From assembly GCA_012520575.1 (NCBI GenBank), contig JAAYOB010000002.1:5264-69263 (forward strand): a stretch of 64,000 nucleotides of DNA, given 5' to 3'. This document shows positions 14,968-37,573 of this stretch, piece after piece. Position 1 is the stretch's first letter. Each line of letters starts with the position of its first letter. Both the position numbers and the translations under genes were made by a program. The DNA comes from Candidatus Stramentimicrobium fermentans. GTDB lineage: Bacteria > Atribacterota > Phoenicimicrobiia > Phoenicimicrobiales > Stramentimicrobiaceae. A model generated the notes under the pieces. It was not told the DNA's origin. It worked only from the letters and a program-made list of their open reading frames with translations, and did no database searches.

Positions 14968-15014
14968 TATCTTTCTTTGAATTTATTACTATCTAATATT
15001 TACTATAAATAACT

Positions 15015-15818: not shown

Positions 15819-15909
15819 TGAGACCCTCTGCTATCATAAAATTTATTCTGCTATCTTACCTATAATTTTAATTGATTTGTGAACCATAGTCTAGTTGGCA
15901 GACGAACGA

Positions 15910-16248
15910 TTATTTATAAGGTATCAGGCATAGAAACCTTAACAATTCCTCTCCCGTGTTTTTAAACCCGTGCTCCAGCCCCGGCTCCACAAAGACCACA
16001 CTGTCTTTTTTAATAGGATAGCTTTTGCCCTCTATCTTGACTTCTCCCTCGCCTTCCAGTACGAATACTTCATGTTCCCAATCATGGGCATGGTAGGGAA
16101 TGTGACCCTCGGCGTCAATTTCAAACATCCTCATAGCAAAATTTTCGGCATCATCCTTATCGGAAATAAGCCATCTCACTTTCGCACCTTTGGTATCTTC
16201 CATTGCCATATCTTCTAAAGGCACTTCCTGATAAGCAGCTACTTTCAT
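15910..16248 (-). CDS. Cupin-domain protein (copy 1)
   Basis: Cupin_2 His motifs HAHDWEHEVFVLEGEG...GLEH. 112 aa. Confidence 0.6.
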   Translation of the reverse strand: MKVAAYQEVPLEDMAMEDTKGAKVRWLISDKDDAENFAMRMFEIDAEGHIPYHAHDWEHEVFVLEGEGEVKIEGKSYPIKKDSVVFVEPGLEHGFKNTGEELLRFLCLIPYK

Positions 16249-16296
16249 CCGCTGATTCCTCCTTTTTCACTTCAAATAATTATTCTTTCACACTTA

Positions 16297-17118
16297 TCAC
16301 GCATGATTTTCAGCTTTATTCATATATCTCTTGATAGTTGGATAGAAATCCGCTGTTTTTTCTATAACCGGGATGTTCTGCTTATTTGCCTTTCTCTTTT
16401 GCTGGGAAGTTGCATAGCTCCAACCGGCGAGCAAGACATTGATTCCTAAAGGACGAGTCTGCACCAGATGCGCCAGCTGGTCATCAACAAAGTAAATCTC
16501 TGCAAATTTAGCCCCATAAAAACTGTTCATATACTTAATCTGATTGGATTTATCTTCTCCAAAACTGATATCGAGTATATCCTCTTCTTTGATGGGAATA
16601 TTATAGTATTGCGGAAGAAAAGCCCGGGCAATGGTGTCACGGAGATTAGAGGTAGCTACCGCCACTTTTACCCCTTCTTGCACAAATTTTTTAATCCCCC
16701 CTACTATTTCCGGATAAGCGGGCTCCAGAGCCAACCATTTTTGAAAACTAATCTCCTGTAATCTCTTTCTCTCTCTATAAAATAGTTCGTAAAACTTATC
16801 AAATTCAAATTTAACCGTATTGCGGTATTGGTCAAATTCTACCTGAGTAGAGATATAATTTTTTTCTTCGAGCAGTTTTTGTATCAAGCCATAGTCGGTA
16901 GCCGCTCTGATATAAGGCCTTAGAGAGCGATAATGGGCAATATCTCGGGCATATTTCTTTTGAATATCAGCCCAGTTTTGAAAAGTAAACTTTTCTCCGC
17001 CAAATACTTTGCTATTGTTGTTACCTATCAACTGCAAATAGGCATTATGGCTGACAAAGAGGGCATCCATTTCACTATCTACAATTACCCCGTCATAATC
17101 AAGTGCCAATACTTTCAT
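16297..17118 (-). CDS. HAD-superfamily hydrolase (copy 2)
   Basis: LALDYDGVIVDS motif I. Collinear similarity to 15015-15818 along the whole length. Confidence 0.65.
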   Translation of the reverse strand: MKVLALDYDGVIVDSEMDALFVSHNAYLQLIGNNNSKVFGGEKFTFQNWADIQKKYARDIAHYRSLRPYIRAATDYGLIQKLLEEKNYISTQVEFDQYRNTVKFEFDKFYELFYRERKRLQEISFQKWLALEPAYPEIVGGIKKFVQEGVKVAVATSNLRDTIARAFLPQYYNIPIKEEDILDISFGEDKSNQIKYMNSFYGAKFAEIYFVDDQLAHLVQTRPLGINVLLAGWSYATSQQKRKANKQNIPVIEKTADFYPTIKRYMNKAENHA

Positions 17119-17152
17119 CTAATTTCCCTTTTTACTACTATTGTGCCGCTAA

Positions 17153-17491
17153 TCAGGACAAAAAATCTTCTCTGACGGGATAGAAAATGTCAATTATCTG
17201 AGCACCTTCTACCAGAGCATGTACCTCATGGGTCATATTAGAAGGAATAATAGCCCCTTCGCCTGCTTTTAAGACTTGTTCTTTACAGCCGACAATCATT
17301 TTTACAGAACCTTTGAGGACATAACAGATCTGCTCATGCGGATGTTCATGTTCCGGCATAATAGTATCTTCGGAACCAAAATCAAACAAGCTCATCATGA
17401 CATGGTTATGGGCTACTGCCCTAATCTGGGAGTTTTTTAATACCGGTTTTACCTTTAATTCATCTTTTTTAAAAAATTTTACTTCTTCCAT
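17153..17491 (-). CDS. Cupin-domain protein (copy 2)
   Basis: HEHPHEQICYVLKGS...THEV cupin motifs. 112 aa. Confidence 0.6.
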   Translation of the reverse strand: MEEVKFFKKDELKVKPVLKNSQIRAVAHNHVMMSLFDFGSEDTIMPEHEHPHEQICYVLKGSVKMIVGCKEQVLKAGEGAIIPSNMTHEVHALVEGAQIIDIFYPVREDFLS

Positions 17492-17568
17492 ATTGGTGTT
17501 CTTTACTCCTGATTACCTCTGAAAATAATTTAGTTATGATAAATATTGTATTAATTAGAAAAATATTT

Positions 17569-18090
17569 TTAAGAACAGCCGAAAACTTGCTCTACTGCCT
17601 CCTGCTGAAAGGGGAAGGCCAGGGGAGGCATATCTGCAATATTAAAATATTCAGCCCTTTCTGCATCATCACCGGCACGCAACTCCCCACCAATAATGCC
17701 CGCCTCATAGGTGATAATAATTACATGGCCATATAAATCACTCTCATGGTTAAAAATTTTAATAAAATTGTTTACAATGCCCTTTAAACCGGTCTCCTCC
17801 TCCAATTCTCTCAATGCCGCCTGAATAGCTGATTCTCCATTATTAATAAATCCACCCGGTAAAGACCATTTTCCTTTCCCCGGCTCTGATTTTCTCTTTA
17901 CCAATACTATGCGGTCATTCCCATCACTAACCACCACTGCTACACTGGGGAGGGGATTATCATAATAGGTAGTCTGACAATTTTCGCAATACTTCCGAAC
18001 CTTGCCCTCTTCTTCCATTTGGGTCAACAGGCTGCCGCATTTGGTGCAATACTTTATATTAATCTGTTTCATCCGATTCTCCTCTATCAA
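17569..18090 (-). CDS. NUDIX hydrolase with N-terminal zinc ribbon
   Basis: Nudix box GGFINNGESAIQAALRELEEETGL. N-terminal CTKCGS...CENCQ. Confidence 0.75.
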   Translation of the reverse strand: MIEENRMKQINIKYCTKCGSLLTQMEEEGKVRKYCENCQTTYYDNPLPSVAVVVSDGNDRIVLVKRKSEPGKGKWSLPGGFINNGESAIQAALRELEEETGLKGIVNNFIKIFNHESDLYGHVIIITYEAGIIGGELRAGDDAERAEYFNIADMPPLAFPFQQEAVEQVFGCS

Positions 18091-18125
18091 TATTTTTACT
18101 TTGTGGGCTACTTATTTTTACAATT

Positions 18126-18833
18126 TCAAATCTGCCCCATCTGGGCGAAGCTATAAAAGCATTTTTCTCCTATTATAATATGGTCCAGCACCTTTACCCC
18201 TAACATGGCACAGGACTGACACAATCTTTTAGTCAATTCCAGGTCTTGCGGACTGGGGTTGGGGTCACCACTGGGATGGTTGTGTAAAAAGACAATGGCT
18301 GCGGCTGATTCTTTAATAACCTCTTTCATCACCTCGCGGGGATGGACGGTGGTCTCATTCAGGCTACCCATAGAAATAAGTACATCACGGATAATCTGGT
18401 ATCTAATATCAAGCAGTAAAATATGAAATACCTCTTTTTTCTTGTCTTTCATTTTGCTATAGTAGTAATCAACTATATCCTGGGCTTTTTGTATTCTCGT
18501 TCCCGGTAAGACCTTCTCCCTTGATAATCTGACTGCCACCTCTAAAGCCGCCCTTATCTGGGCATATTTGGCTTGTCCTATACCTTTTATTTCTTTTATT
18601 TCGGCAAAAGAAGCCGTTGCTAAATTCCTGAGGCTGCCGAATTGGGCCAGCAAATCCCGAGCCACTTCCAATGCAGTCTTACCGGAATGGCCCTTGTTAA
18701 TTATAAGAGCTAATAACTCGGCATCAGTCAAAAATTGAGGACCATGCTGCAATAATCTCTCACGAGGACGTTCGTATTCCGGCCAATCCTTGATGGTATA
18801 ATTCTTTTTTCCTTTTCTATATTCTATGGTCAC
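18126..18833 (-). CDS. radC: RadC-like JAB/JAMM domain protein
   Basis: HhH N-terminal region. JAMM motif HNHPSGDPNPSPQD. Confidence 0.8.
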   Translation of the reverse strand: MTIEYRKGKKNYTIKDWPEYERPRERLLQHGPQFLTDAELLALIINKGHSGKTALEVARDLLAQFGSLRNLATASFAEIKEIKGIGQAKYAQIRAALEVAVRLSREKVLPGTRIQKAQDIVDYYYSKMKDKKKEVFHILLLDIRYQIIRDVLISMGSLNETTVHPREVMKEVIKESAAAIVFLHNHPSGDPNPSPQDLELTKRLCQSCAMLGVKVLDHIIIGEKCFYSFAQMGQI

Positions 18834-18848
18834 TTCTTACTCACTTCA

Positions 18849-20141
18849 CTACCCTTCAGAACAAGAAAATCCTTCCCTTTGTTTTTTCCTTTTTATACGG
18901 GCTAAGCGATGATCTAAATCCTTTCGCCACTCTGTTTTCACGCTCCCGGAAATGTTTTCCCGGTTTAACCTATGTAAAGCCTCTTCAACAATACTTTCAG
19001 CCTGACCATAGTCCTTCTTTTGGTGTTCATAATATTTTGCCAATTCTTCATAGGGATAGGGCGAAAAATCTCTACTTAAAGAGATAATATCACGCCAGGC
19101 GGCCTCTGCTTTGTCCCATTTTAATTGCTTCTTATAGGCAAAGGCACACAATCTTAAGGTTTCCACTGCCTCTTCATCAGAGAGGTCGCATTTTAAGGCT
19201 TCCTCATAACATTTGCTGCTATATTGAAAATCCCTATGTCCTTCAAATATTTTACCGATGCTGCATAAGTCTAATGCTGACTTTACCATCTCTAAGGGAT
19301 CTTCTAATACCTGACCAATCCTGGTAGCGAGAAGCACCAGGGAAATAATGTCCTGCTGATTGTGGGCAAATACCGGTTTAAGGGGCCGGGCATCTTTATC
19401 CAGCAGATAGCGAAAATAGACTTGGGGAATAAGATAACCGGGTATATCTCCGTTTCTCCTAATTTTCAAAACTTCCTTCTCAATATTTTGCAGGGTGCAG
19501 TCCTGTAGCCTCCTCTTCCATAGTCTGCGAGTGGGGAAGAGTAAATCAAGATGGTGAGAGGTATTCAAGTGAAAGGGCTGCCGCGTCATAATGTAGCGGG
19601 TCTGCAATAGAGGGAAATCATAACTTTTCCCATTATAAGTAACCAATATCTTAAAGCCCTGACCAAAAAGCTGGTTAACCCCCCATAAGAGGGCTTCCTC
19701 TTCATGGTAGTCCGACATAAAATATTGTCTGATATGGAACTCTTCGCCTCTAAAAAAGCCGAGGCCCAATAAAAAAATATACGTGCCGGAACCTCCCGCC
19801 AATCCGGTCGTTTCGGTATCAAAAAAGAGCATCTCTTCTAATTTGAACTCTTCGCCTCTCCTATTAAATTGCGGCAACCAAAGATGCAATCCGGGGGTAA
19901 AATAGCGTTGTATGTCGGATAAGGAGTTTTCACCAAAAGAGGTATCCGGGGTAATGATTCTTTCCGCATAGAAACAATTGCCATGCGGTGTCTCAATGGT
20001 ATTTCCGGGTACAATTTCCGAGACAGATGACTTATTGTTACTTTTTTTAGAAAAAGTATTTTTCTGATTACGGTTATTGCTGATTTGCTGTACTTTTTTC
20101 TTCAGACTCTCAATCTGCTCCAGTCGGTCACGTAAGTTCAT
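18849..20141 (-). CDS. RNase H-like (DEDD-type) exonuclease with C-terminal TPR region, YprB/MrfB-like
   Basis: FFDTETTGL DEDD motif. TPR-like C-terminus. Sits directly downstream of, and 2 nt from, the YprA-type helicase, as in the B. subtilis yprA-yprB (mrfAB) pair. Confidence 0.55.
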   Translation of the reverse strand: MNLRDRLEQIESLKKKVQQISNNRNQKNTFSKKSNNKSSVSEIVPGNTIETPHGNCFYAERIITPDTSFGENSLSDIQRYFTPGLHLWLPQFNRRGEEFKLEEMLFFDTETTGLAGGSGTYIFLLGLGFFRGEEFHIRQYFMSDYHEEEALLWGVNQLFGQGFKILVTYNGKSYDFPLLQTRYIMTRQPFHLNTSHHLDLLFPTRRLWKRRLQDCTLQNIEKEVLKIRRNGDIPGYLIPQVYFRYLLDKDARPLKPVFAHNQQDIISLVLLATRIGQVLEDPLEMVKSALDLCSIGKIFEGHRDFQYSSKCYEEALKCDLSDEEAVETLRLCAFAYKKQLKWDKAEAAWRDIISLSRDFSPYPYEELAKYYEHQKKDYGQAESIVEEALHRLNRENISGSVKTEWRKDLDHRLARIKRKKQREGFSCSEG

Positions 20142-20143
20142 AA

Positions 20144-22432
20144 TTAACGAATGGCCTCCTTCAGAATGAAGAGTGCACTCTGCTTCCCCTGTTTCCCAAC
20201 CTGATTAATGGGTCCCACACAGGAAGGACATCCTTCATCGCAGCCGCAATTTTCGATCAAATTACGAGCTGCCGCTAAGATTTTAGAGCGTAACTCAAAA
20301 ATTTTCTCACTAAAACCAACCCCTCCCGGGTAATTATCATAGATAAAGAGTGTGGGTAAATCGGTAAAAGGAGAGCGAACTTGGGCCACTGCTTTAATAT
20401 CATTGGGATCACACATTACAAATAAGGGGGCTACATTGACCAGAACATTGGAGAGAGCTAATAAGCCCCCTGCCAGGTCAAAGGCAGCACCGGGGGCAAT
20501 TTTTCCACCCACTAGCTGGGGAAAGGTTTCCGCTAAAATAAGCCAATAGGCAGTAGTATGCATATCCTCTGCCGGTAAATTAATCTTGCCATAACCCAAA
20601 TTTTCATGGGTATAGAATTTTACCTTTTTATACATAGTGGAGAGGGTAGTAATAGCTATCTCACCATGCTGATGGTAAACATTTTCTTCCTCATGCAGAT
20701 TAAAGACATCCATAACTTTAATATCACTCTCTACCTGGGCATCGGTATAATAATTGACCTCCACCTTCTTGGCATAAGCCTTATAATCATCATAATCAAG
20801 TTTGGTAATGGTGTATTGTTCACCCTCATGTATATAGATAGCCCCTTCAAATATGGTAGTGTGGACGCTTTCTCGGTCAACCTCTCCGATAACCTTGTCC
20901 ATTCCCTCCTCTACATCGATAATGGTAAAGTTATCCGGGGAAGCACTGCGCAGACTGATTTCATCAGCCGGATAGGCATCGCTCATCCAGTGCCATTTAT
21001 TTCGTGAGAAATGAAGAATTCCTTTATCCTCTAGGAATTGCAGTATCTCTTCCAGCTCTTCTGTACCAAATTTTTCCTCCGGGATAAAGGGGAGTTCAAA
21101 GGCGGCACATTTGATATGACTGATTAAAATACTCAAATTGTCAGGGTCAATAACGGCACTCTCCGGGGTCTCCTTAAAAAAGTAATCAGGGGAATTGATA
21201 ATATACTGGTCTAAGGGGATACTGGAGGCAACCAATATAGCCACTGAGGAGTGGGAACGCCGACCGGCGCGACCTGCCTGCTGCCAGGTACTGGTAATGG
21301 TACCCGGATAGCCGGCAATGAAGCAGGCATCCAATTGTCCTATATCTACCCCTAATTCTAAGGCATTGGTGCTGACCACACCCTTGATATGGCCCTCTTT
21401 AAGCCCTTTTTCAATCTCACGCCTCAGATTGGGCAGATAACCGCCCCGATACCCTCTTACTAAGTCGCGGTCTTGTCCCAATTTTTCAAAATAATCTTTC
21501 AGATAACTGGTCAAAAGCTCGGTGGCCAGACGGCTGCGGGCAAAAACGATAGTCTGTATATCGTGATTTAGAAATTTACTGACCAGGCGCGATGTTTCTT
21601 TAATCAAGCTTTTCCTTATACCGAGTTCTCTGTTGATTACCGGTGGATTATAAAAGAGAAAATATTTTTCTCCGCTGGGCGCCCCATTGTTATTAATCAG
21701 GGTAAATTTTTCTCCGGTAATTCTTTCCGCCAACTCCTGAGGATTGGCGATAGTGGCTGAACAGCAGATAAACTGCGGCTTAGAACCATAAAATTCACAG
21801 ATTCGTTTTAAACGGCGCAATACATTAGCCATGTGGCTGCCGAACACACCACGATAGATATGTATCTCATCTATGACAATATATTTCAAATTTTGAAACA
21901 ATCTATGCCACTTAGTATGGTGGGGCAATATACCGGTATGCAGCATATCAGGATTAGTGACAATGATGTTCCCCTGATTACGGATAGCCGAACGAGCTGA
22001 TACCGGGGTATCTCCGTCATAGGTGTGGGTACCGATAGATTTATCCAGGGCTTCTACCAACCGATATAGTTCTCTCAGTTGGTCCTGAGCCAGAGCTTTA
22101 GTGGGAAAAAGATAGATTGCCCGGCTCTCCGGCTCTCTGATAACCCTATTCAATACCGGCAAATTATAGCAAAGTGTTTTACCGGAAGCAGTAGGGGTAA
22201 CCACCACCGCATTTTGCCCCTCTTGGATAGCATTTAAGGCACTCACTTGATGTGAATAGAGCCTGGTTATGCCATCCTCTTTTAAACGGTTAATCAGTTC
22301 CGGCTTCAGCCAGCCCGGGTAATCGGCTAACTTGGCTTCCTGTGCCGGCAGATACTCCAGCGCAGTCAGGTATGGACGGATAGTATAATCCTGTTCCAGT
22401 TCCTGAATGATGGATTTAACATCACATTTCAT
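20144..22432 (-). CDS. DEAD/DEAH-box helicase with C-terminal DUF1998 Zn domain, YprA/MrfA-like
   Basis: Walker A TPTASGKT, DEAH box VIDEIH, helicase C motifs QQAGRAGR. C-terminal four-Cys cluster CGCDEGCPSCVGP. Confidence 0.7.
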   Translation of the reverse strand: MKCDVKSIIQELEQDYTIRPYLTALEYLPAQEAKLADYPGWLKPELINRLKEDGITRLYSHQVSALNAIQEGQNAVVVTPTASGKTLCYNLPVLNRVIREPESRAIYLFPTKALAQDQLRELYRLVEALDKSIGTHTYDGDTPVSARSAIRNQGNIIVTNPDMLHTGILPHHTKWHRLFQNLKYIVIDEIHIYRGVFGSHMANVLRRLKRICEFYGSKPQFICCSATIANPQELAERITGEKFTLINNNGAPSGEKYFLFYNPPVINRELGIRKSLIKETSRLVSKFLNHDIQTIVFARSRLATELLTSYLKDYFEKLGQDRDLVRGYRGGYLPNLRREIEKGLKEGHIKGVVSTNALELGVDIGQLDACFIAGYPGTITSTWQQAGRAGRRSHSSVAILVASSIPLDQYIINSPDYFFKETPESAVIDPDNLSILISHIKCAAFELPFIPEEKFGTEELEEILQFLEDKGILHFSRNKWHWMSDAYPADEISLRSASPDNFTIIDVEEGMDKVIGEVDRESVHTTIFEGAIYIHEGEQYTITKLDYDDYKAYAKKVEVNYYTDAQVESDIKVMDVFNLHEEENVYHQHGEIAITTLSTMYKKVKFYTHENLGYGKINLPAEDMHTTAYWLILAETFPQLVGGKIAPGAAFDLAGGLLALSNVLVNVAPLFVMCDPNDIKAVAQVRSPFTDLPTLFIYDNYPGGVGFSEKIFELRSKILAAARNLIENCGCDEGCPSCVGPINQVGKQGKQSALFILKEAIR

Positions 22433-22689
22433 TTTGCTGCTCCCTTATTTCAAGTAAATCATAAATTCTACTATAAATTAATATCGCTACCAGTATACCA
22501 TACCTGATGAAAAAACATGTATGAGCGAAATGCCAAGAGCTGCAAGCTTTTCATCGTTGACTTTAAGTTTTTTATTTATTATTAGGAATAAAGGAATAGG
22601 GTATGTTTGAAGTAGAGAAGACTTTCAATGTAACCCCGGACCGAATGCGAGGAAACAAGTATTCGAATAATTCTATTTTAAAAACAATC

Positions 22690-25422
22690 CTAATAAGTTA
22701 ATTTTAATTTTTTTAAGAGTTCTACAAAAGGAATGGGTGTTAAGGAGATAAAAATAACTACCAGCCATTGGACAGCAGTAAGTGCTGTTACTTGAAAAAC
22801 AGATTGTAAAAAAGGTATCAACATAACACCCAACTGTAAAAAAGCAGAGGCAATGATAGCCAGCACTAAATAACGGTTACTAAAAATACCTAAACTGAAG
22901 ATAGAAAATTTATTGGAGCGAGAGTTGAGGGAGTGAGCCAGTTGACTCAAACTCAAAGCACCAAAAGCCATAGTTTCACCAACCGCTAAAGAATACCGGC
23001 TATAGCCATAATAAAAAGCAATCAGGGTTATTGATCCAATAAAAACCCCTTGAGAGAAAATATTAAAGCCCATCTTGCCTGAAAAGAAACCTTCCTTGGG
23101 ATTACGGGGGTGTTGACTCATCACATCCCGTTCTGCCGGGTCTAGCCCTAAAGCCAAAGCAGCTAAACCATCGGTCACCAGATTGACCCAGAGAATTTGA
23201 ATAGGCAAGAGCGGACGTGGCCAGCCGATCAGGATAGCCACAAATATGGTTAAAATTTCTCCTAAATTGCAAGATAGTAAATAATTAATAAATTTTCTGA
23301 TATTCTGATAAATCTTTCGGCCTTCTTCTATGGCTCGCACGATAGAGTAAAAATTATCATCAGTTAAAACCATATCCGCTGCCTCTTTAGCTACATCGGT
23401 CCCGGTGATGCCCATAGCCACCCCGATATCCGCCTCTTTCAGTGCCGGTGCGTCATTGGCACCATCCCCGGTCATGGCTACCACCTGTCCGTTCTTTTGC
23501 AGAGCTTGAACAATCCTCATCTTGTGACGTGGCGATACCCGGGCAAAAATTGCAGTCTGTCCTACCACCTGTTCCAATTCCTCTTGAGACATCTGTTCTA
23601 ATTCTATGCCGGTAATTATTTTATCCTGGGGATAATATATGCCTATCTTCTCAGCAATCGCCTGGGCGGTTAGGGCAAAATCACCGGTTATGATAACGGG
23701 GCGAATTCCTGCCTGACGGCAAGTCTGCACCGCCTCAACCGCCTCTTTGCGGGGCGGGTCAATCATAGCAGCCAGCCCTAAAAAGGTTAACCCATTTTCC
23801 AACCGGTCAGGATCCAATTTTTTATTCTTATCTATTCCTTCCAACTCTTGAGGGCTTATACGCCGGTAAGCAACCGCCAAAACACGCAATGCCATGGCTG
23901 CTAATTCATTATTCCGTGCTATAATCTTTTCCCTAAAGCCATCAGATACAGTTAGTTCTTGTCCATCATTTCTAAAGGTAACACTGCGCTCTATAATACT
24001 TTCCGAGGCTCCTTTGGTAAACAGCATATAATCCCCTGCCGGTGTGCGGTGAATGGTGGACATTCTCTTCCGTTCAGCATCAAAAAGTACCTCCCTGACG
24101 CGGGGGTATTCTTTTTCCAATCCTTCCTTCTGATAACCTGCTTTGGCAGCAGCTACCACCAATGCTCCTTCAGTGGGATCACCGATAATCTCCCATTGCC
24201 GGTCATCTTCGTTCTTTCTTAAATAGGAATTGTTACAAAGTGCGGCGGCTTTTAATAAGAGAGATAGGGTTTCATAATCACGAGGACTAATAATGTGCAC
24301 ACCTTCCAGAAAATGTCCGGCAGGTTGATATCCTACACCTTCCACCTCAATCTCTCGTTCCGGCAAAACCAGTCTTTGTACTGTCATCTGGTTTTGAGTC
24401 AATGTTCCGGTCTTATCAGAGCAGATTACAGTCGTGGCACCTAAGGTTTCTACTGCCGGCAGACGTCTGATAATGGCATTTTTCTTAATCATCTGTTGTA
24501 CGCCTAAAGCAAGCACTATAGTGACAACCGCCGGTAACCCTTCCGGAACTGCGGCAACCGCCAGGGAAATACCGGTAAGGAACATATCAAAAAAGGGAAT
24601 TCCCCGCCAGTAGCCTAATAAAACAACAACTATTACTATTGCCAGGATAATTATTCCTAAGTTTTTTCCAACCTGGTTCAGCTTTTTTTGCAGAGGCGTT
24701 AACTCTCTTTGTTGTTCCTGCAACATCCCGGCAATTTGGCCGATTTCAGTATTCATACCGGTGCCAACTACTATTCCCTTGCCACGACCGGTTACTATCG
24801 TAGTGCCCGTATAAGCCATATTGAAACGGTCGCCCAACGACACCTCTCCCTGACTGGTCAGCTCCCGATCATTCTTTTCTACCGGTTCTGATTCTCCGGT
24901 CAATACCGCTTCTTGAATACCTAATTCAGTAACTTCAAATAGGCGTAGGTCAGCAGGAATCCGCTCACCTGCCTCTAAAAATACTATATCTCCGGGCACT
25001 AATTGAGTAGATTTTATTTTTTTCTGTCTTCCTCCCCTTAATACCAGGGCTTCCGGAACGGTCATCTTTTTTAAGGCATCGAGGGATTTCTCTGCTTTAA
25101 ACTCCTGTACTACGCTCAAGGTAGCATTTAAAATTACAATGATACCGATAATAATCGCATCAGTCACCTCTCCCAATAACACAGAAATAGCGGCAGAGAC
25201 TAATAAGATTATAATCAAAACATCGCTAAACTGGTCTAAGAACATCTGCCAGATAGTCCTTTTTCTACCCTCTTGCAATTGGTTCGGCCCGATTTTCTCC
25301 AACCGCAGCTCAGCCTCAGCAGGCGTTAGCCCCACCTGTAAAGAGGTTTTTAAATCCTGCTCGACCTCTGGCACTGTCTTTAAATAATATTTAACTGGTA
25401 CTTGCTCTATTTTTTCATTCAT
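22690..25422 (-). CDS. P-type cation-transporting ATPase, Ca2+ (P2A/P2B) type
   Basis: 910 aa. Phosphorylation motif DKTGTLT, TGES, hinge GDGANDAPAL. Ten TM segments. Confidence 0.85.
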   Translation of the reverse strand: MNEKIEQVPVKYYLKTVPEVEQDLKTSLQVGLTPAEAELRLEKIGPNQLQEGRKRTIWQMFLDQFSDVLIIILLVSAAISVLLGEVTDAIIIGIIVILNATLSVVQEFKAEKSLDALKKMTVPEALVLRGGRQKKIKSTQLVPGDIVFLEAGERIPADLRLFEVTELGIQEAVLTGESEPVEKNDRELTSQGEVSLGDRFNMAYTGTTIVTGRGKGIVVGTGMNTEIGQIAGMLQEQQRELTPLQKKLNQVGKNLGIIILAIVIVVVLLGYWRGIPFFDMFLTGISLAVAAVPEGLPAVVTIVLALGVQQMIKKNAIIRRLPAVETLGATTVICSDKTGTLTQNQMTVQRLVLPEREIEVEGVGYQPAGHFLEGVHIISPRDYETLSLLLKAAALCNNSYLRKNEDDRQWEIIGDPTEGALVVAAAKAGYQKEGLEKEYPRVREVLFDAERKRMSTIHRTPAGDYMLFTKGASESIIERSVTFRNDGQELTVSDGFREKIIARNNELAAMALRVLAVAYRRISPQELEGIDKNKKLDPDRLENGLTFLGLAAMIDPPRKEAVEAVQTCRQAGIRPVIITGDFALTAQAIAEKIGIYYPQDKIITGIELEQMSQEELEQVVGQTAIFARVSPRHKMRIVQALQKNGQVVAMTGDGANDAPALKEADIGVAMGITGTDVAKEAADMVLTDDNFYSIVRAIEEGRKIYQNIRKFINYLLSCNLGEILTIFVAILIGWPRPLLPIQILWVNLVTDGLAALALGLDPAERDVMSQHPRNPKEGFFSGKMGFNIFSQGVFIGSITLIAFYYGYSRYSLAVGETMAFGALSLSQLAHSLNSRSNKFSIFSLGIFSNRYLVLAIIASAFLQLGVMLIPFLQSVFQVTALTAVQWLVVIFISLTPIPFVELLKKLKLTY

Positions 25423-25499
25423 CGGTTAAATTTAACACCTCGCCGAACTAACATTATAATTTTACTCAAAATACTTTTTAAGTAGGGGTATATTTTTCA

Positions 25500-26030
25500 G
25501 TTCCTGTATGCATCCACCAAAGCTCTTGCCCTTATCGGATAAGCTTGTTAAAAGGCTGCTGTGTATTTTTAGAGTTTGGCGGCAGTGCTCTCGGTAAAAT
25601 TGTTTACCTTCCCCAGAAAGGGCAACCAGCACCTCCGCCTATCCTGTTGGGCACGGCACCTTTGCAGCAATCCCCGTTTAATCAGGCAGTCTACCATACT
25701 GGTCATAGTATTGGGGACAACTCGAATTAATTGAGAGGGCTTGCCCATAGATACAAATGTTTCTTGCCTAAATATTCGATAATAAAGTGTTTACAAATGC
25801 TTAAAGTTGGACCTTCCTTGCTACAAGAACACCGGGCAACATGTAGCCGGAGCATTTCCATTAATTTAAGAAGGGGCTCTCCATGTTACTGGCGGCCTTT
25901 CCCCCCGGCTTTACTTCCCTGCCCATTCTCATAAGCAAGAAATAGCCCTATCGTACGAATATCGTATATTGTAATTTTTGTTCTATCAATATGGTAGGAA
26001 CCTGCACTCGGAAAGTCAAGATAATGCCAA
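25500..26030. other. GC-rich structured non-coding island between the P-type ATPase start and the creatininase gene; unassigned (possible ncRNA or leader)
   Basis: GC content is clearly above the surrounding AT-rich intergenic DNA. Long imperfect hairpin GGCGGCAGTGCT...AGCACCTCCGCC (25579-25639) enclosing GGTAAAattgTTTACC. Nested palindrome CTTATCgGATAAG. Only short unconvincing ORFs. Confidence 0.3.
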
Positions 26031-26385
26031 CGAAAAAAGATAATACACCTTAAAAATTTGTTCCTGCCAATTTTTCTTAGTTGTTTTAGTTCTCTTCTTA
26101 AAAATCTAAAATAATCTCAGCTAGCTTCAAAGCTGGATCCTATCGGAAAATGCCAGAGATTGATAAACAGGTTGGCCAGAAGGCCTATGCCTGAACCATC
26201 TGTTCTTTTATGCCGCTTTATTTTCGCTATTTACTTTTCAAAGGATTTATCAAGTTAAATTTACTGCTTAGGTTGAATATTTTTTATTGAATTGGCAGAG
26301 TATTTTGGGTGATAAAGAGATTATTGATTTAAAAAAATAGTTGATTTAAATTGTTTTATTTACATTCCTATTTTTGCTTATTAAT

Positions 26386-27162
26386 TTAATTAGCCAGCCC
26401 ATTCGCAATATCATCAAACAAATATGAAAACTCTTGGACCATGATCTGAAAGAGCTCTTTTCCTGTGCTTTTTAAAGCTGCCCTAGGCTCTCCAATAACT
26501 CCAATATCGCTATAATGAGAAAAAGGCCTATACTGGTGTATTCTTTTGTTTGTGAACATGCCGGGCTGAAAATATTTTTTAGCTTCTATTATTCCCCCCA
26601 TTAAATTTTCAGTATCAACAAGGTCGGGAGACAGGTAAAGTTGCAATGAAGTTTCTAGCTCCCCGGCATGCCCCATTCCTCCTTTTTGTGACCTTTGAGC
26701 TTTTTGGATAATTTCTGAAAAATAATTATAGTATGTTACGAGTATAGGGTAAATATTATGACTTGCTCCTAATTCATCAACCACTGTTCTTAAAATTCCG
26801 ACATTCCCCCCATGGCTATTTATAATTAGAATATTCTTTATTTTATGAGCATCTAGACTCACACAAATATCCAAAACGAAGTTGCTAAAAGTTGCCTGTC
26901 TTAAGGTTATGCTGCCGCAAAAATCCATGTGATGAGGCGAATAACCAACCCAAATAGGTGGTAAAATTAACACTTTTTCCTTTGCTAGCAAAGCTGCTTC
27001 CTCTATTAAACGATATCCGATTGTTGTATCTGTTTCCAAGGGCAGATGAAAACCGTGCTGTTCACAAGAGCCTACGGCAATAACAACTACTGTTTTATCG
27101 TCAATATAAGACTTCAGTTCATTAGATTTAAATTTAACCCAATAAATATTTTTGTTTTTCAT
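26386..27162 (-). CDS. Creatininase-family amidohydrolase
   Basis: GSCEQHGFHLPLETD metal-binding motif of the creatinine amidohydrolase / MftE-like family. Confidence 0.75.
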   Translation of the reverse strand: MKNKNIYWVKFKSNELKSYIDDKTVVVIAVGSCEQHGFHLPLETDTTIGYRLIEEAALLAKEKVLILPPIWVGYSPHHMDFCGSITLRQATFSNFVLDICVSLDAHKIKNILIINSHGGNVGILRTVVDELGASHNIYPILVTYYNYFSEIIQKAQRSQKGGMGHAGELETSLQLYLSPDLVDTENLMGGIIEAKKYFQPGMFTNKRIHQYRPFSHYSDIGVIGEPRAALKSTGKELFQIMVQEFSYLFDDIANGLAN

Positions 27163-27420
27163 GATACGATAATTACTCCTTCTTACAGTTTTATTTGTAC
27201 TAATTTTAAATAGTGTCTACGCTTTAGTCTAAACTAATCTAAAAAAATTGGCCATGCATGTTCACTTTCCTATAGAATATTTATAACCGAAAGGATTAGC
27301 ATAGGAGGAGCAGAAGCACACTTGACCAAAATCTAACCGTATTATCATTTTAATTACAGCGTACTTGGACACGGATATAAAAGAATGTAAGCTGCTTAGC
27401 CTATACAGGTCGCCTACTTG

Positions 27421-27744
27421 CTATGGTTTATCAATAAATTTACTTGAATTTATTTTTATAATGATGTTTTCTATTAAATTTTGTCCAATTTCCTGGTTTA
27501 ATATATTGATAATTTCACCTTTTCTAATAACTATTTCGCTTGCCCAGATATGGTTTTTAACCATTAAAAAAAGATTATTATTCTGAATTTTCAGTGGTTT
27601 GGTATTTAGGGCAATTTCAGGAGGAAGAATATCTTCCCAAGAATCAAAAAAATTGTAACCATCGACTCTCTGTGTCCAATTGCGCGATTTAAAAAATGAT
27701 TGGACAATCTCATTGATATGTCTTGGTTCCTTACTCTCCATCAT
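27421..27744 (-). CDS. DUF721-domain protein (DciA/RemB-like) downstream of recF
   Basis: 107 aa. The pattern W..I..P.I...T.P..I.N..L.V.V..S.WA.E......EI...LN matches DUF721. Overlaps the recF stop by 14 nt. Same position as Rv0004/dciA and B. subtilis yaaB. Confidence 0.55.
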   Translation of the reverse strand: MMESKEPRHINEIVQSFFKSRNWTQRVDGYNFFDSWEDILPPEIALNTKPLKIQNNNLFLMVKNHIWASEIVIRKGEIINILNQEIGQNLIENIIIKINSSKFIDKP

Positions 27745-28882
27745 TCTGCATTGTCCCGTCCTTTATTCGGAATATTTTTGAGGAGGAATTAATATTATAT
27801 TGTGTCAAGTCTTCTATATCTATACTGGTAATAAAAGTTTGCAGAGGCCTTTCTTTGATTATTTTCATTAAAAATAATCTTCTTTCTGAATCAAGCTCTG
27901 ATAAGACATCATCTAGCAGCAAGGGGGGGTACTCACGGTCTTTCTCCTTCAATAGTTCCAATTCGGCCATTTTCAGAGCTAACACTGCGGTGCGCTGCTG
28001 CCCCTGGGAACCATAAATACCTAAATCCACTAAATTGTTCATAATAAAGTAATCATCTCGATGGGGACCGACAGTGGTTACTTTAAGTCTTAAATCTTGT
28101 TCTTTGGCCTGGCTGAGTTTCTGTTCAAAAATATTTCCTATCTCCTCATTATCTTCTGAAAAAGATGTTAAAATATTACTGTTATATTTTAGTTTTAAAA
28201 CTTCCTGGTTTTTAGTCATCAATTGATGTATGATTTTAACTTTTTGATTCATTATTTGTAAGGTTTTCACCCTATACCGGATAATCATGCTTCCTATTTC
28301 TACTATTTTCTGGTCCCAGACAGTTAAGTGTTGCTCTAAATTGCTTTTACTTTCTATGCTCTTTAACAACATATTTCTCTGGAATAGTACGCGGCTATAG
28401 TCCCTTAGGTAGCGTTCATAGATAGGATTAAGATTAATAATCACCTCATCCAAAAATTTTCTTCTAACAGAGGGAGAGCTTTTAATGATTTGCAGGTCTT
28501 CTGGTGTAAATATTACCGGGGTGAATCTTTTGGTGAGCCAGGATTTTTGCCGGTATTTTTTATTTACTTTGATAATTTTTTTGGCTTTTTTAGGCAGGGA
28601 ATTTATCCGGTCAATGTCTTGGAGTAGAATATTAATTTGAAATTTTTCTTTATTTTTACTTACTTCCCCTAAAATATAACTTTCTTTTTCAGACCAGTTT
28701 ATTAAATTGGAATCCTCTTTGGCTCGGTAACTATTTCCTCTTAGTAAGGTATAAATCGATTCAATAACATTTGTTTTACCTTGGGCATTATCGCCTATGA
28801 AAATGTTTAAGGAGCTATGAAAATTAAAAGAAGCATCTTTAAAATTTCTAAAATTAATTAATCTAATCTTATCAACATTCAA
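27731..28882 (-). CDS. recF: DNA replication and repair protein RecF
   Basis: N-terminal Walker A GDNAQGKTN. SMC-like signature and Walker B near the C-terminus. dnaA-dnaN-recF synteny. Confidence 0.85.
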   Translation of the reverse strand: MNVDKIRLINFRNFKDASFNFHSSLNIFIGDNAQGKTNVIESIYTLLRGNSYRAKEDSNLINWSEKESYILGEVSKNKEKFQINILLQDIDRINSLPKKAKKIIKVNKKYRQKSWLTKRFTPVIFTPEDLQIIKSSPSVRRKFLDEVIINLNPIYERYLRDYSRVLFQRNMLLKSIESKSNLEQHLTVWDQKIVEIGSMIIRYRVKTLQIMNQKVKIIHQLMTKNQEVLKLKYNSNILTSFSEDNEEIGNIFEQKLSQAKEQDLRLKVTTVGPHRDDYFIMNNLVDLGIYGSQGQQRTAVLALKMAELELLKEKDREYPPLLLDDVLSELDSERRLFLMKIIKERPLQTFITSIDIEDLTQYNINSSSKIFRIKDGTMQNDGE

Positions 28883-28944
28883 ATAATTTTTCCTTCCTGT
28901 ATTATCCTCACCTACGCCCTTATAGGAGTGTTGTCCTCACTGGA

Positions 28945-30117
28945 TTAACTCATTCTTACCGGCATCAAAACATAGCTATATTGTTCTTCTTTAGCAACTG
29001 GATTAATCATAGCAGGATTTAGATTTTCATTTAATTTTATCTCAGTCTGATCTGTTTTAATAATTCTTAAAACATCATTTATATAACGGGAATTGAAGGA
29101 TATCTCAATATATTCCCCATCTATTAAGCAGGGAATCTGTTCACTGGCATCCCCTATATCCGGTGTGTTTACCTTTAAAATTAATTCTCCCCTATTTTCT
29201 CCTACCTGCTGAGAATAAATATGTGTTTCTAATCTGATAGTATTAATATCTTCTGTAACAAATAAACTGATTCTTTCCATTCTTTGTCTAAATTCTTCGG
29301 TATCTATTTTAATAGTAGTTTTAAATTGTTGAGGTATTATTTGGTGGTAATCAGGATATTGGCCATCGATAATGCGGGAAAATAACCTAATTCTATTCTT
29401 TTCCCCTTCCGAATTTAAAGTAAAAATAACCTGTTTTTCACCTAAATCTATTTCCACTATATTGTCATCCTCAAAGCTGAGTAATTTAAATAATTCAGAT
29501 AGTGCTCTCTGGGGAATAATAACTTCAAATTGGCTGTCTGTATCAATCCTATTCTTACCGGTTAATTTAATTTTTTTTAAGGCCAGACGGTGGCTGTCGG
29601 TTGCTACAATCTCTATTCCTTTTTCTACATTTTTAAATAAAATACCATTTAGAAAAGATCTGCTCTCATCCCTAGAAGAAGCAAATACCACCTCTTGTAT
29701 GGTCTCTTTTAATATTTTCTGTGTTAGTTTAATCTTTACTCTGCTTTGAACATCAGGAAATGGTGAAAAATCTTCAGCAGAAAACCCTAATATTTTATAG
29801 TTAGACATATCTTCTTCTTTAATATGAATTATATTATTTTTATCTACCTCAATCTCTATATTACCTTCCGGAAATTTTCTGATTAAATCGCTGAAAATTT
29901 TATTGGGAATAACTACCGCACCATGTTCTATAATCTGTGCGGAAATATAACAATCAATTCCTATTTCTAAATCGGTTGAAAATAAGTGAATTTTATTATC
30001 TTTAGTCACTTCAAAAAGAATACCGTTATATATAGGTAAACCAAGTTTGGTAGAAATGGCCTTCTGTACTATTTGAGTTCCGTTTTCTAAACTTTTTTGA
30101 GAACAGATAACTTTCAT
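28945..30117 (-). CDS. dnaN: DNA polymerase III beta sliding clamp
   Basis: 390 aa with three-domain clamp organisation. Directly downstream of dnaA. Confidence 0.9.
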   Translation of the reverse strand: MKVICSQKSLENGTQIVQKAISTKLGLPIYNGILFEVTKDNKIHLFSTDLEIGIDCYISAQIIEHGAVVIPNKIFSDLIRKFPEGNIEIEVDKNNIIHIKEEDMSNYKILGFSAEDFSPFPDVQSRVKIKLTQKILKETIQEVVFASSRDESRSFLNGILFKNVEKGIEIVATDSHRLALKKIKLTGKNRIDTDSQFEVIIPQRALSELFKLLSFEDDNIVEIDLGEKQVIFTLNSEGEKNRIRLFSRIIDGQYPDYHQIIPQQFKTTIKIDTEEFRQRMERISLFVTEDINTIRLETHIYSQQVGENRGELILKVNTPDIGDASEQIPCLIDGEYIEISFNSRYINDVLRIIKTDQTEIKLNENLNPAMINPVAKEEQYSYVLMPVRMS

Positions 30118-30463
30118 TTTTTTTCTCCCATTCTTTATAGTTTGCTTAATATTTTTGAAATATATTAAATATAAGAATAAGTAGTATTAGTAGTAATAAT
30201 GTTAATAAAGTGAATAAATATTTTAATCTCATCTAATTTAACAGTTAAATATGTGGATATTATTCTTAATAATTATATCTTTTATTAACAATATTCACAT
30301 AACCATATTTATTATTATATTAATTTATTTACTTAAAAAACGAAGAAATTATTAATAAGTGTTATATTATAATATTGAAGGTATATTTCAAATTACAAAT
30401 TATTTTCTTACCCATTAAAAAGATATTAATAATTATTCATTATGAGCAAAATATATTTATTGT
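30118..30463. promoter_or_regulatory. AT-rich dnaA-dnaN intergenic region with DnaA-box-like sites (possible oriC half / DUE)
   Basis: More than 80% AT. Contains TGTGGATAT and ATATTCACA (one mismatch each to TGTGGATAA/TTATCCACA). Confidence 0.4.
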
Positions 30464-31843
30464 TTAAGAACTATTTTTAATCTTATTTATTATTCTATCT
30501 ATATCCAATTTTAGTTTGTTATCTTTTAACAGCTGTTCTCTAATCTTATTGCAGGAGTGAAGAACAGTGGTATGGTCTTTCCCTCCAAAAGAGGCACCAA
30601 TCACAGGGAGGGAGTTATCGGTTAATTCCCGGGACAGATACATGGCAATATGACGGGCAGTTACTATATTTCTAGTTCTTTTTTTGGATAATAATAAACC
30701 CATTTTGATATTAAAAAATTCTGCAGTGTGTCTTTGAATTAAAGGGATGGATATCTCTTTTCTCTCAATAGGAATAAGGTCTTTTAAGATTTGCTGGGCT
30801 TGGGTAAAGTCAACCTCTTTTTGACCTGTTAAATCTAAATATGCCTTCAATTTAATTAAAGCACTTTCCAATTGACGAATATTAGATGGCTTTTCGGCGA
30901 TATGATTTATAATATCATCAGAAACCTCTAATTGATAAAATTCTGACTTCTTTTGTAATATAGCAATCCTGGTTTCAAATTCAGGCATCTGAATATCAGT
31001 GATAAGACCCCATTCAAATCGGGAAACCAAACGGCTCTCTAAATTGGCGATATCTTTAGGTGGTTTATCCGAAGTAATAACAATCTGTTTTCCGGCATTG
31101 TATAGCGTATTAAAGGTATGAAAAAACTCTTCCTGAGTTCTTTCCTTCCCTACTAGGAACTGTATATCATCAATCAATAGGACATCATAATTACGATATT
31201 TTTCTCTAAAGGATACTGTGGCATCTTCTTTAATAGCGTTAATTAATTCATTGGTAAACTTTTCAGAAGAAATAAAAGCAATATTTATAGAATGAAGAGA
31301 ATTTTTGTTAACAATATAGTTTCCAATGGCATGCATAAGGTGTGTTTTACCTAATCCTACCCCACCATAGATAAAGAGGGGATTATAAGATTTTCCGGGA
31401 GATTGAGCTACTGCCAAGCTGGCAGCCTGGGCTAATCGGTTAGAGTCCCCTACCACAAAATCATCAAAAGTATATTTGCTATTTAAACCGGTTTCTCGAT
31501 ATTGTTTCTCCAGGATATCTTTATCCGCCGCCTTGTTCTTCTTCCCCCCGGCAATTAAATTTGTGGACGACTTCGGGCTTTTGATTGTATCTATACTAAA
31601 TTTAATGTTAATATCCCCCTCTAGCCCCAGTTGTTCCATAAAAATATTATTGATGAAATGGATGTGGTTTTTTTCCAGCCATTCTTTACAAAACTTATCG
31701 GGTACCGCAAGATGTAATTCATTATTTTTAAAGTCGATGAGTTGAATTCTGGAAAACCAGGTATTAAATATCTGCAGGCCCACTCTGTCCCGAATAATAT
31801 TTAGAGCTTCCTCCCATTTTTCATCTAATCGGTGATAGTTCAT
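30464..31843 (-). CDS. dnaA: Chromosomal replication initiator protein DnaA
   Basis: AAA+ Walker A GGVGLGKTHL, Walker B LLIDDIQ, domain IV DNA-binding C-terminus. Confidence 0.9.
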   Translation of the reverse strand: MNYHRLDEKWEEALNIIRDRVGLQIFNTWFSRIQLIDFKNNELHLAVPDKFCKEWLEKNHIHFINNIFMEQLGLEGDINIKFSIDTIKSPKSSTNLIAGGKKNKAADKDILEKQYRETGLNSKYTFDDFVVGDSNRLAQAASLAVAQSPGKSYNPLFIYGGVGLGKTHLMHAIGNYIVNKNSLHSINIAFISSEKFTNELINAIKEDATVSFREKYRNYDVLLIDDIQFLVGKERTQEEFFHTFNTLYNAGKQIVITSDKPPKDIANLESRLVSRFEWGLITDIQMPEFETRIAILQKKSEFYQLEVSDDIINHIAEKPSNIRQLESALIKLKAYLDLTGQKEVDFTQAQQILKDLIPIERKEISIPLIQRHTAEFFNIKMGLLLSKKRTRNIVTARHIAMYLSRELTDNSLPVIGASFGGKDHTTVLHSCNKIREQLLKDNKLKLDIDRIINKIKNSS

Positions 31844-32452
31844 AATAACCCTTAAATAGCATATAGTTTAATGGTAATTTAAGCAGCTGTTGAAAAGTTC
31901 AGCCCCAACTATTAAATAATTAAGAATTTAAAAAAGTATTAACAGTATTAACAATAGACTGTGGAAAACAATCTATGGGCTTCTTGATTAGATCAAAAAA
32001 GCCTTTGCCGTAATAAAAGTATTTTTCAAAAAAAATGGCTTTCAAAGGTTTCGGTAATAATAAAAGGTTTTTATCTAATTCACAGTTTATTAACAGTTGT
32101 GGATAAATAAGAAAAACAAAACCCAATTAAAATAAGAGCAAATTTAAAGTTTGTGTTTAAATTATACTCCTAATATCATAGCAAAAATATGGAAACATGC
32201 CAAGAAATTTTTTGAACACTTTCTCCAGCCAGAAGCAATGACAAATTTTAAAACGCTTTTCAGATTTTATAATATCTTGTTATTATAATTGAAATGAGGT
32301 AGACTATTTCAGTATTTGACATATTTATGGAATTATAGTTATAATTTGGAATCATAACTCGCTGGCTCAATATCAGCATGATTGGTTAAGTCTAACCAAG
32401 ACAGGAAAGATATAAAACAATTTCTAAATAGCTAACAGGAGAATAAAAACAA
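31844..32452. promoter_or_regulatory. dnaA-upstream origin region with DnaA boxes
   Basis: Perfect TGTGGATAA (32098-32106). TGTGGAAAA (31960-31968). TAATTCACA (32076-32084). AT-rich flanks. Lies between divergent dnaA and rpmH. Confidence 0.55.
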
Positions 32453-32593
32453 ATGAAGCGTACTTATCAGCCCAGTACCAGAAAGAGACTGAAGACACAC
32501 GGATTTCGTAAACGTATGAGTACTAAAAGCGGAAGACTTATCTTGAAAAGAAGAAGACAAAAAGGAAGGAAGAGATTAACCGTTTCCGGTTAG
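32453..32593 (+). CDS. rpmH: 50S ribosomal protein L34
   Basis: [46 protein letters not shown], 46 aa. Not in the ORF track because of its length. Confidence 0.9.
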
Positions 32594-32595
32594 AT

Positions 32596-32949
32596 GGCAA
32601 CCTAGTTAAGGAGAGTTCCATAAAAACTAGTGAGTTTAGAAGAGTTTTTTCCGGTGGAAATAAGATATTAGGAAAGAATATTGTACTCCATGTCCTATCA
32701 ACTCAGCAGGAGAATAATAAGGTAGGTATTATCGTTAAAAAGAGCATTGGCAATGCTGTACAGCGCAACAAAATTAGGCGAAGATTAAGGGAGATCTGGC
32801 GTCAACAGAATAAGGTGCTAAGTCCGGGCTATGATATGGTTATCGTCGCTCGAAAGGAGATTATCTCAGCTACGTTTGCCGAGATAGAACAAGAAATTAT
32901 AGAATTATTGCAAAGGAATAATATCAAATTGGTAAAGAGAGAAACATAA
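32596..32949 (+). CDS. rnpA: Ribonuclease P protein component
   Basis: SEFRRVFSGGNK...VGIIVKKSIGNAVQRNKIRRRLRE conserved RnpA core. The 5' boundary is uncertain: no in-frame ATG/GTG/TTG near the conserved N-terminus. Confidence 0.7.
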   Translation, partial: GNLVKESSIKTSEFRRVFSGGNKILGKNIVLHVLSTQQENNKVGIIVKKSIGNAVQRNKIRRRLREIWRQQNKVLSPGYDMVIVARKEIISATFAEIEQEIIELLQRNNIKLVKRET

Positions 32950-32973
32950 GAGAATTCTTATGTTAATACTATA

Positions 32974-33198
32974 ATGATGAAAAAAATACTAATTACAGTG
33001 ATTGTCTTTTATCAAAAGCATATTTCCCCTTTAAAACCGGCAACTTGTAGGTTTTACCCTACTTGTTCCGAATACGCTCTACAGGCCATTCGCAAATATG
33101 GCTATTTAAAAGGAACCTGGCTATCTTTAAAGAGGGTGTTGAGATGCCACCCTTATCATCCCGGCGGTTTTGACCCGGTACCGGTACTTGATAAGTAA
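32974..33198 (+). CDS. yidD: Membrane protein insertion efficiency factor YidD
   Basis: [21 protein letters not shown]...HPGG hallmark. Confidence 0.85.
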
Positions 33199-33274
33199 TG
33201 TTAATTAGATAGAAAGCTTAATAGAAATAGATAAATACAGGCGGTATTTTTAAAGAGAAAAGGAGAATAGTGAT

Positions 33275-36421: not shown

Positions 36422-36674
36422 GAATGCTTTAAAAAATCTAAGTCTATCTTAAAATACCCGTCCCCATATTAGGCTGTCTCAGAACATCATTAAAACCGAA
36501 ACTGCATATCCGGCCTTGCCTCGGCTAAGTTAAGAAAGTTCCCATAATTTTGCAAAATTAGGGATGCATCATATCAGTTAACATAGGTTAAAACTAACAA
36601 AAATAGATAATATTGAACCAATATTATCTTTATAGAAATCTTTCTATGACTTTAAAGAAGTAGAAATAGTTTAA

Positions 36675-36690
36675 TGTTCCACGTGGAACA
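36675..36690. promoter_or_regulatory. parS site 1 (TGTTCCACGTGGAACA) within a 26-bp perfect palindrome
   Basis: 15/16 match to the Firmicutes parS consensus TGTTNCACGTGAAACA. Extended palindrome TTTAATGTTCCACGTGGAACATTAAA (36670-36695). Confidence 0.7.
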
Positions 36691-36998
36691 TTAAACTCAA
36701 ACATAATTCATTATCATATTAAAAACGGAAATTGCTGTTTCGGTCTGCTGTTTGATAAATTATTAATTAGATATAAAGAAAAGCTAATATCTAATTGTTG
36801 CCATATTCTTTATATATTAAGGCAGAATAACAGAATCAGTTTAAGGTAAGATTTACGCTTAAAGGAAACAAAGAAGACTTATTTTTTATATACTGTCCGT
36901 AATTAATGAGAAGCTTTACCGGCAGAAAAGTCCCTTCCTCCAGAATAATAAGAGATAAGGAGAAGTAAAAAACTATAGATTCTAATAAGATTTTATAT

Positions 36999-37529: not shown

Positions 37530-37545
37530 TGTTCCACGTGGAACA
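37530..37545. promoter_or_regulatory. parS site 2 (TGTTCCACGTGGAACA), 29 nt upstream of parA
   Basis: 16-mer identical to site 1. Confidence 0.7.
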
Positions 37546-37573
37546 ATTTTTTAAATAAGAGGACTGGTCGATA

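Follow-up and report, generated by a model that had tools for sequence, protein, structure and literature searches.

A frameshifted MarR-family pseudogene, with a predicted promoter and a putative operator, very probably precedes the Ca2+-ATPase gene of an Atribacterota genome

Background

In this study, we report that an intergenic island in the genome of Candidatus Stramentimicrobium fermentans (Atribacterota) represents, with an estimated probability of about 0.9, a MarR-family repressor gene that has decayed into a unitary pseudogene (psi-marR), accompanied by the predicted promoter and the putative palindromic operator of a marR-ATPase operon. The DNA analysed was a stretch of 64,000 nucleotides, referred to throughout as the window, in which the island (25500-26030) lies upstream of a gene for a Ca2+-ATPase. 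An initial annotation had described the island as GC-rich, highly structured and non-coding, and had proposed that it might be a structured RNA, either novel or specific to the clade, an extended regulatory leader of the ATPase gene, or a decayed gene. The last of these proposals was confirmed by homology to MarR proteins over the full length, by reading frames that step along the gene and by a repaired protein that matches the MarR family. A BLASTX-type match identifying a pseudogene, which the same annotation had named as the outcome that would speak against a new element, was found. A false structured-RNA candidate is thus removed, and psi-marR, the predicted promoter and the probable operator can be added to the annotation of this Atribacterota genome.

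The MarR/SlyA family (PF01047) comprises autoregulated repressors such as E. coli MarR of marRAB, the Zn-responsive AdcR/ZitR, and FabT. Like these, the intact orthologs of psi-marR are winged-helix proteins of ~155 aa, encoded by the first gene of the operon that they presumably control, and a short perfect palindrome is present just downstream of the -10 element. Unlike these, the gene in the window is dead, with three frameshifts, and it belongs to an uncharacterised subfamily that lacks an NCBIfam equivalog; the presumed target, a SERCA-like Ca2+-ATPase, also differs from those of the named MarR systems. A MarR protein paired with a Ca2+ P-type ATPase was not found described in a literature search, in which all the articles retrieved were reviews of no relevance to the question.

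Composition and coding content of the gap

The gap extends over 963 bp between the start of the ATPase gene (25422) and the stop of a creatininase-family gene (26386), in agreement with the ~960 bp first estimated, and both flanking genes are located on the minus strand, as had been stated. The ORF upstream of the gap (26386-27162, minus strand) was identified as Pfam Creatininase. The reported jump in GC content was real, with 44.4% for 25500-26030 against 37.5% for the window, but the description GC-rich did not hold, since the neighbouring genes have an equal content (39-49%; ATPase 43.8%, helicase 44.5%). The composition of the island is therefore coding-like, and it stands out as rich only in comparison with intergenic DNA: between ORFs of at least 150 aa, the remaining gaps have 15-41% GC, mostly 22-35%. 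The ORFs of the island, which had been considered short and unconvincing, proved to be successive pieces of a single gene distributed across three frames. Both the rise in GC content and the scattered hairpins are probably leftovers of coding sequence. A gap whose GC content resembles that of genes, and whose short ORFs tile one protein family over three frames, provides a signature by which such pseudogenes may be recognised.

The genes and the control elements of the locus are as follows:

22690-25422, minus strand: P2A-type (SERCA-like) Ca2+-ATPase gene, 910 aa, intact (Pfam; NCBIfam TIGR01116 at 720.6 bits, cutoff 703.4)
25462-25932, minus strand: psi-marR, full-length pseudogene for a winged-helix regulator of the MarR family, 471 nt (codon alignments, tblastn and Pfam)
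25954-25966, no strand assigned: perfect palindrome TACGA-N3-TCGTA (TACGATATTCGTA), putative MarR operator, between the -10 element and the marR start
25991-26019, minus strand: predicted operon promoter (promoter scan), -35 TTGACT (26019-26014), 17-nt spacer, -10 TACCAT (25996-25991)

Identity of psi-marR

The ATG of psi-marR at 25932 is homologous to the start codon of the orthologs, and its TAA at 25464-25462 to their stop codon. In a six-frame translation, the 59-aa ORF at 25569-25748 (minus strand, ...SQLIRVVPNTMTSMVDCLIKRGLLQRCRAQQDRRR...) matched Pfam MarR with an E value of 7e-5 and a score of 23.1 bits, just below the cutoff of 24.6. When 15 intact orthologs were compared with the gap by tblastn, three collinear HSPs were obtained in frames +3, +2 and +1 successively, and a fourth, N-terminal piece was located in frame +1. 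The repaired translation matched 16 MarR-family proteins in a database of 5.8 billion sequences, and the best of these matches, to P0001, had an E value of 9.7e-60 with 70% identity over 99% of the length.

An intact MarR ORF of 154-164 aa was found directly upstream of, and co-oriented with, the orthologous Ca2+-ATPase gene at 17 related Atribacterota loci. In the arrangement described for the relatives, 20-40 nt separate the two genes. The intact orthologs score 42-45 bits against Pfam MarR (PF01047; cutoff 24.6) and match the solved MarR structures 2rdp, 6jbx (FabT) and 5yhy/6fi9 (AdcR/ZitR). None of the NCBIfam equivalogs reached its cutoff on this MarR subfamily, the best being FabT with 49 bits against 200. 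The closest two loci, L043 and L042, are 84% and 80% identical to the window at the nucleotide level from 26019 into the ATPase gene, and all 157 codons of psi-marR can still be aligned. Judged by the match of the repaired translation to family members, the descent of psi-marR from the MarR family is secure, while the domain itself is degraded. An uninterrupted ORF of ~140-170 aa with dimerisation helices is lacking, and the locus was therefore filed as a MarR pseudogene rather than as a member of the family.

Predicted promoter and putative operator

The predicted promoter is sigma-70-like and, in the form TTGACT-17-TAT(C/G/T)AT, is conserved at the equivalent position in 15 relatives. In the window, the -10 element has drifted by one consensus position (TATCAT to TACCAT), and the conserved TCGTAT that overlaps the -10 element in the relatives reads TCCTAC. 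Owing to this drift, the old promoter may be weakened and the ATPase gene may need another start, for example at 25481-25453, where a further promoter-like sequence was noted:

25453-25481, minus strand: candidate secondary promoter TTAAAA-17-TATAAT, within the last psi-marR codons, with the ATPase ATG 31 nt further downstream; a speculative assignment

This candidate is common to the window and L043 and is absent from L042; since the region is AT-rich, a chance match is plausible.

The palindrome TACGA-N3-TCGTA has a single exact match within the 64-kb window. In eight relatives, the exact palindrome occurs once per locus and always between the promoter and marR; a further six carry the variant [TG][AG]CGAtatTCG[TC]A (for example TGCGATATTCGCA) at the same position, and two additional loci have degenerate forms. 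An exact or closely similar palindrome is thus located downstream of the -10 element in the window and in 14 of the 17 relatives, at a distance from the -10 element of ~10-25 nt in the relatives and 25 nt in the window. A short palindrome just downstream of the -10 element is the typical layout of MarR autorepression, and the palindrome was for this reason taken as the operator; by this analogy, TACGA-N3-TCGTA is probably the MarR operator. As it is conserved, the putative operator also offers a starting point for studying the uncharacterised MarR subfamily that accompanies the Ca2+ pump.

Compared with L042 and L043, the window carries a 7-nt insertion, ACAATAT (25961-25975, minus strand), immediately 5' of the putative operator, which resembles an imperfect tandem duplication of the first half of the operator (TACAATA/TACGATA). 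At two of the related loci (L040:4650-5860 and L007:4526-5615), palindromic units that occur repeatedly, AAGGGGAAGGATTCCCCTTGAATATC and TTCAGGGGAAACCTCCCCTGAA, border marR on either side. The repeat features of these loci also include runs of CGTATAA heptamers after the operator and, in L007, an additional 180-nt direct repeat (97%). The MITE-like insertions in L040 and L007 place 200-570 nt between the operator and marR and 260-740 nt between marR and the ATPase gene, and they provide the final codons of marR.

Disabling mutations and relaxed constraint

Codon-aware nucleotide alignments of psi-marR with its orthologs revealed exactly three 1-nt deletions and one 3-nt deletion, with no other gaps:

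25874-25875, minus strand: lesion 1, a 1-nt deletion of ambiguous placement in ...GAGCC|CCTT... (alignments with L043, L042 and others)
25765-25766, minus strand: lesion 2, an A-run shortened by 1 nt, GGCAAAGAA to GGCAAGAA (alignments)
25634-25635, minus strand: lesion 3, a 1-nt deletion, GGCGGAAGG to GGCGGAGG, which falls in the 5' arm of the hairpin described below
25494-25495, minus strand: in-frame 3-nt deletion near the 3' end of psi-marR (alignments)

After lesion 1, the native frame stops, leaving 23 codons before a TAA at ~25863-25861. It is slightly unusual that the three frameshifts are all -1 and sum to -3, yet each of them leaves stop codons in the way.

Decay was also evident in the substitutions. 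The repaired psi-marR scores 22.4 bits against Pfam MarR, about half the score of the intact orthologs and below the cutoff of 24.6. When invariant positions were defined from 29 intact family members, 6 of 29 family-invariant residues were found to be lost in psi-marR (F21L, E48K, S64G, L66P, T75N and R83C), as were 4 of 15 near-invariant residues, whereas intact members depart from such positions 0-3 times each (median 0). With L042 as the outgroup, 49 private substitutions (33 nonsynonymous) were counted in the window against 21 (12 nonsynonymous) in the sister L043, which corresponds to a rate 2.3 times that of the sister lineage. A Tajima-type relative-rate test on these private counts gave a chi-square of 11.2 (p ~0.001). 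The dN/dS of marR was 0.44 between the window and L043, compared with 0.13 between L043 and L042, which are both intact.

Syntenic full-length homology, reproducible disabling mutations and relaxed constraint, the marks by which a pseudogene is recognised, were all found. According to the alignments, three independent 1-nt deletions, together with substitutions at invariant residues, have destroyed the repressor. The locus resembles other unitary frameshift pseudogenes in its full-length homology within a conserved gene order, in small deletions that cause premature stops, in accelerated and less constrained substitution and in indel polymorphism between strains; nothing sets it apart from them, and it is young, with the promoter and the putative operator still recognisable. 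It is an ordinary frameshift pseudogene, with nothing new in how the locus works. We regard it as a small biological observation, and nothing at the locus would surprise a specialist.

Alternative explanations for the frameshifts and for the island

In favour of an intact gene whose three frameshifts are sequencing or assembly errors, two of the three deletions fall in short homopolymer runs (AAA to AA and AA to A). These runs, however, are merely 2-3 nt long, the adjacent genes of 910 aa and 762 aa are uninterrupted, and identical lesions recur in three short-read metagenome assemblies that were obtained independently from different samples. Across the 963-nt gap, the independent metagenome assemblies L001 and L002 show 100% identity and a third (L003, Logan ERR6160979) shows 99.9%, one extra indel being its sole difference; lesions common to three independent assemblies are not assembly errors. 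Decay that does not depend on the indels (6 of 29 residues lost, a 2.3-fold rate and a halved Pfam score) likewise argues against artefacts, and we consider this explanation very unlikely. Three -1 slips, which sum to -3, would on the other hand restore the frame, and the 59-aa ORF at 25569-25748 retains the recognition helix TMTSMVDxLIKRGL (23.1 bits, Pfam MarR); the locus could then be functional through three programmed -1 frameshifts or through a shortened DNA-binding peptide of 59 aa. Programmed frameshifting was rejected because none of the three sites has a slippery X XXY YYZ heptamer, and three successive programmed shifts in a gene of 157 codons are, to our knowledge, unprecedented. 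The dimers in which MarR proteins act are formed by the N- and C-terminal helices, neither of which is encoded in the 59-aa ORF. The invariant R83 of the recognition helix has been replaced by C, the helix-turn-helix carries S64G, L66P and T75N, and L003 has an additional frame-breaking indel, all of which make a functional locus extremely improbable. This indel is a polymorphism within psi-marR in a C-run next to the 3-nt deletion, at window position 25489 (L003:~5933), where L003 has CCCCC and the window CCCC. No allele of the same species with an intact marR was detected in a protein-pattern scan of the JGI metagenomes, and a DNA-pattern scan of the JGI data returned four contigs, among which L045 was the sole relative and carries an intact gene at 54% identity.

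A structured RNA, either a riboswitch-like leader or an sRNA, that occupies the island and controls the ATPase was also considered. It would fit the long gap upstream of a P-type ATPase gene, the conservation of the sequence in relatives and the one stable local hairpin (z = -2.8). Among P-type ATPase genes, RNA leaders are represented by the M-box/ykoK Mg2+ riboswitch and the mgtA leader, which psi-marR resembles in that several hundred nucleotides of leader follow a promoter before the P-type ATPase ORF begins. Unlike these leaders, it is a former ORF and has no Rfam match, no terminator/antiterminator pair, no excess stability and no covariation. The initial annotation had found by eye no convincing match to RNase P, tmRNA, SRP, cobalamin, SAM or M-box signatures in the island, and the Rfam scan agreed: Rfam 15 at gathering scores gave no match in the entire 64-kb window, not even a tRNA, and permissive searching of the gap (E <= 10) returned noise only, the best hit having E = 0.26 over 34 nt. 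The description of the 531-nt island as highly structured was not supported, the z-score of its folding energy relative to dinucleotide shuffles being -1.08 for the minus and -0.63 for the plus strand, and a second GC-rich stretch at 25860-25925 likewise showed no excess stability (z = +0.3 and +0.9). The suggested comparative alignment with relatives disclosed no covariation; the orthologous DNA is an intact protein-coding gene, and the conservation is that of an intact ORF with variation at third codon positions. RNAalifold found next to no consensus structure in the homolog alignment, with -2.65 kcal/mol across 520 columns. With no Rfam match, no excess folding energy and no conserved structure among 19 homologous sequences, a novel or clade-specific structured RNA is very improbable. 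The proposal of a long regulatory leader survives only in a trivial sense: from its position after the operon promoter and ahead of the ATPase gene, psi-marR is probably transcribed as a leader, but no sign of a regulatory RNA function was found.

The long imperfect hairpin with the inner GGTAAA/TTTACC stem that had been pointed out is indeed present:

25578-25639, no strand assigned: imperfect hairpin within the MarR wing codons (DRRKVLVxLSxEGKQFY)

Its arms are formed by GGCGGCAGTGCT (25578-25589) with AGCACCTCCGCC (25628-25639) and, further in, by GGTAAA (25593-25598) with TTTACC (25603-25608), and its folding energy on the minus strand is -29.1 kcal/mol (z = -2.8). The hairpin already exists inside the intact L043 gene, where the orthologous segment folds at -25.1 kcal/mol; L042 and 15 further orthologs lack it, with folding energies of -5 to -16 kcal/mol, and it is thus not kept in 16 of 18 homologs. 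In the 19-sequence alignment, its 22 pairs were formed in 65.3% of cells, compared with 63.8% in column shuffles. As a conserved RNA element, the hairpin was rejected on account of its absence in most homologs and of pairing like that of shuffles; on this comparison, it is a lineage-specific accident of GC-richer codons. No U-run follows the hairpin, and a terminator scan found no intrinsic-terminator-like site on the minus strand from 26019 to 25422.

Proposed consequence for the Ca2+-ATPase

The comparisons of gene order and sequence establish a conserved module of predicted promoter, putative operator, marR and ATPase gene in Atribacterota, of which marR alone has been destroyed in this lineage. 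By the same comparisons, the ATPase is under purifying selection: it has 86.7% amino-acid identity to its ortholog in L042 with a dN/dS of 0.088, and further Atribacterota orthologs are 62-78% identical. One lineage of an uncultured phylum has thus lost the dedicated repressor of an otherwise conserved Ca2+-ATPase operon.

By analogy with known MarR systems, the palindrome that closely follows the -10 element would in the relatives be bound by a MarR dimer, and the dimer would repress its own operon until a signal releases the protein. In the lineage of the window, repression would have been lost with the repressor, while the promoter, the putative operator and the ATPase gene are retained, so that the ATPase would now be transcribed constitutively from the retained promoter. 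The dead marR of ~500 nt would form a passive untranslated 5' leader, in which a stub of 23 codons of the original frame stays open. Loss of the repressor thus probably leaves the pump constitutively expressed. An untranslated leader of 500 nt could be subject to Rho-dependent polarity. An intact MarR paralog elsewhere in the genome, of which the 64-kb window is the part viewed here, may also still occupy the operator.

Two more far-reaching readings were considered jointly, and the chance given to them is slim. According to one, the psi-marR transcript would have been exapted, such that the leader and its hairpin modulate the stability of the ATPase mRNA, Rho-dependent polarity or translation; RNA-based control would then replace protein-based control of a Ca2+-ATPase. 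According to the other, the intact orthologs would constitute a MarR subfamily, so far uncharacterised, that responds to Ca2+ or a different cation and regulates the SERCA-like pump across Atribacterota.

Synteny breakpoint and wider window

Homology with L042 begins exactly at 26019, which is the first base of the -35 element TTGACT. Beyond this position, the following region extends to the creatininase-family gene:

26020-26385, no strand assigned: AT-rich spacer unique to this genome, at a synteny breakpoint, with no homology to the relatives beyond 26019

In the relatives, arginine-biosynthesis genes are located upstream of marR, whereas the window has dnaA-dnaN-recF-dciA-creatininase in this position. 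The lack of homology upstream of 26019, together with the differing gene order, places a rearrangement breakpoint at ~26020. No remnants of arg genes were found in the spacer 25939-26385 or elsewhere in the window. The loss of the repressor adjoins a rearrangement by which the operon came to neighbour the dnaA-dnaN-recF region. The terminator scan identified a weak terminator-like hairpin at 26135-26118 (minus strand), downstream of the creatininase gene.

The GC content of the genes steps at 26020, from 39-49% in 13777-25422 (ATPase, helicase and beyond) to 31-36% in 26386-31843 (creatininase, recF, dnaN and dnaA). This step, from ~44% to ~33% in summary, coincides with the breakpoint and suggests a rearrangement or an acquired block.

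Additional observations were made in the wider window. The number of DnaA boxes in the window is not above chance. The spacer between dnaA and dnaN (30118-30463) has 15% GC over 346 nt and is a candidate part of oriC, as is the 1.4-kb gap upstream of dnaA (31844-33274), which contains the only perfect DnaA box of the window, TTATCCACA (32098). Four copies of TTTTCCACA are clustered at 37000-37227, and more gaps of over 1 kb between ORFs of at least 150 aa are located at 36422-37573, 46850-47901 and 55116-56498.
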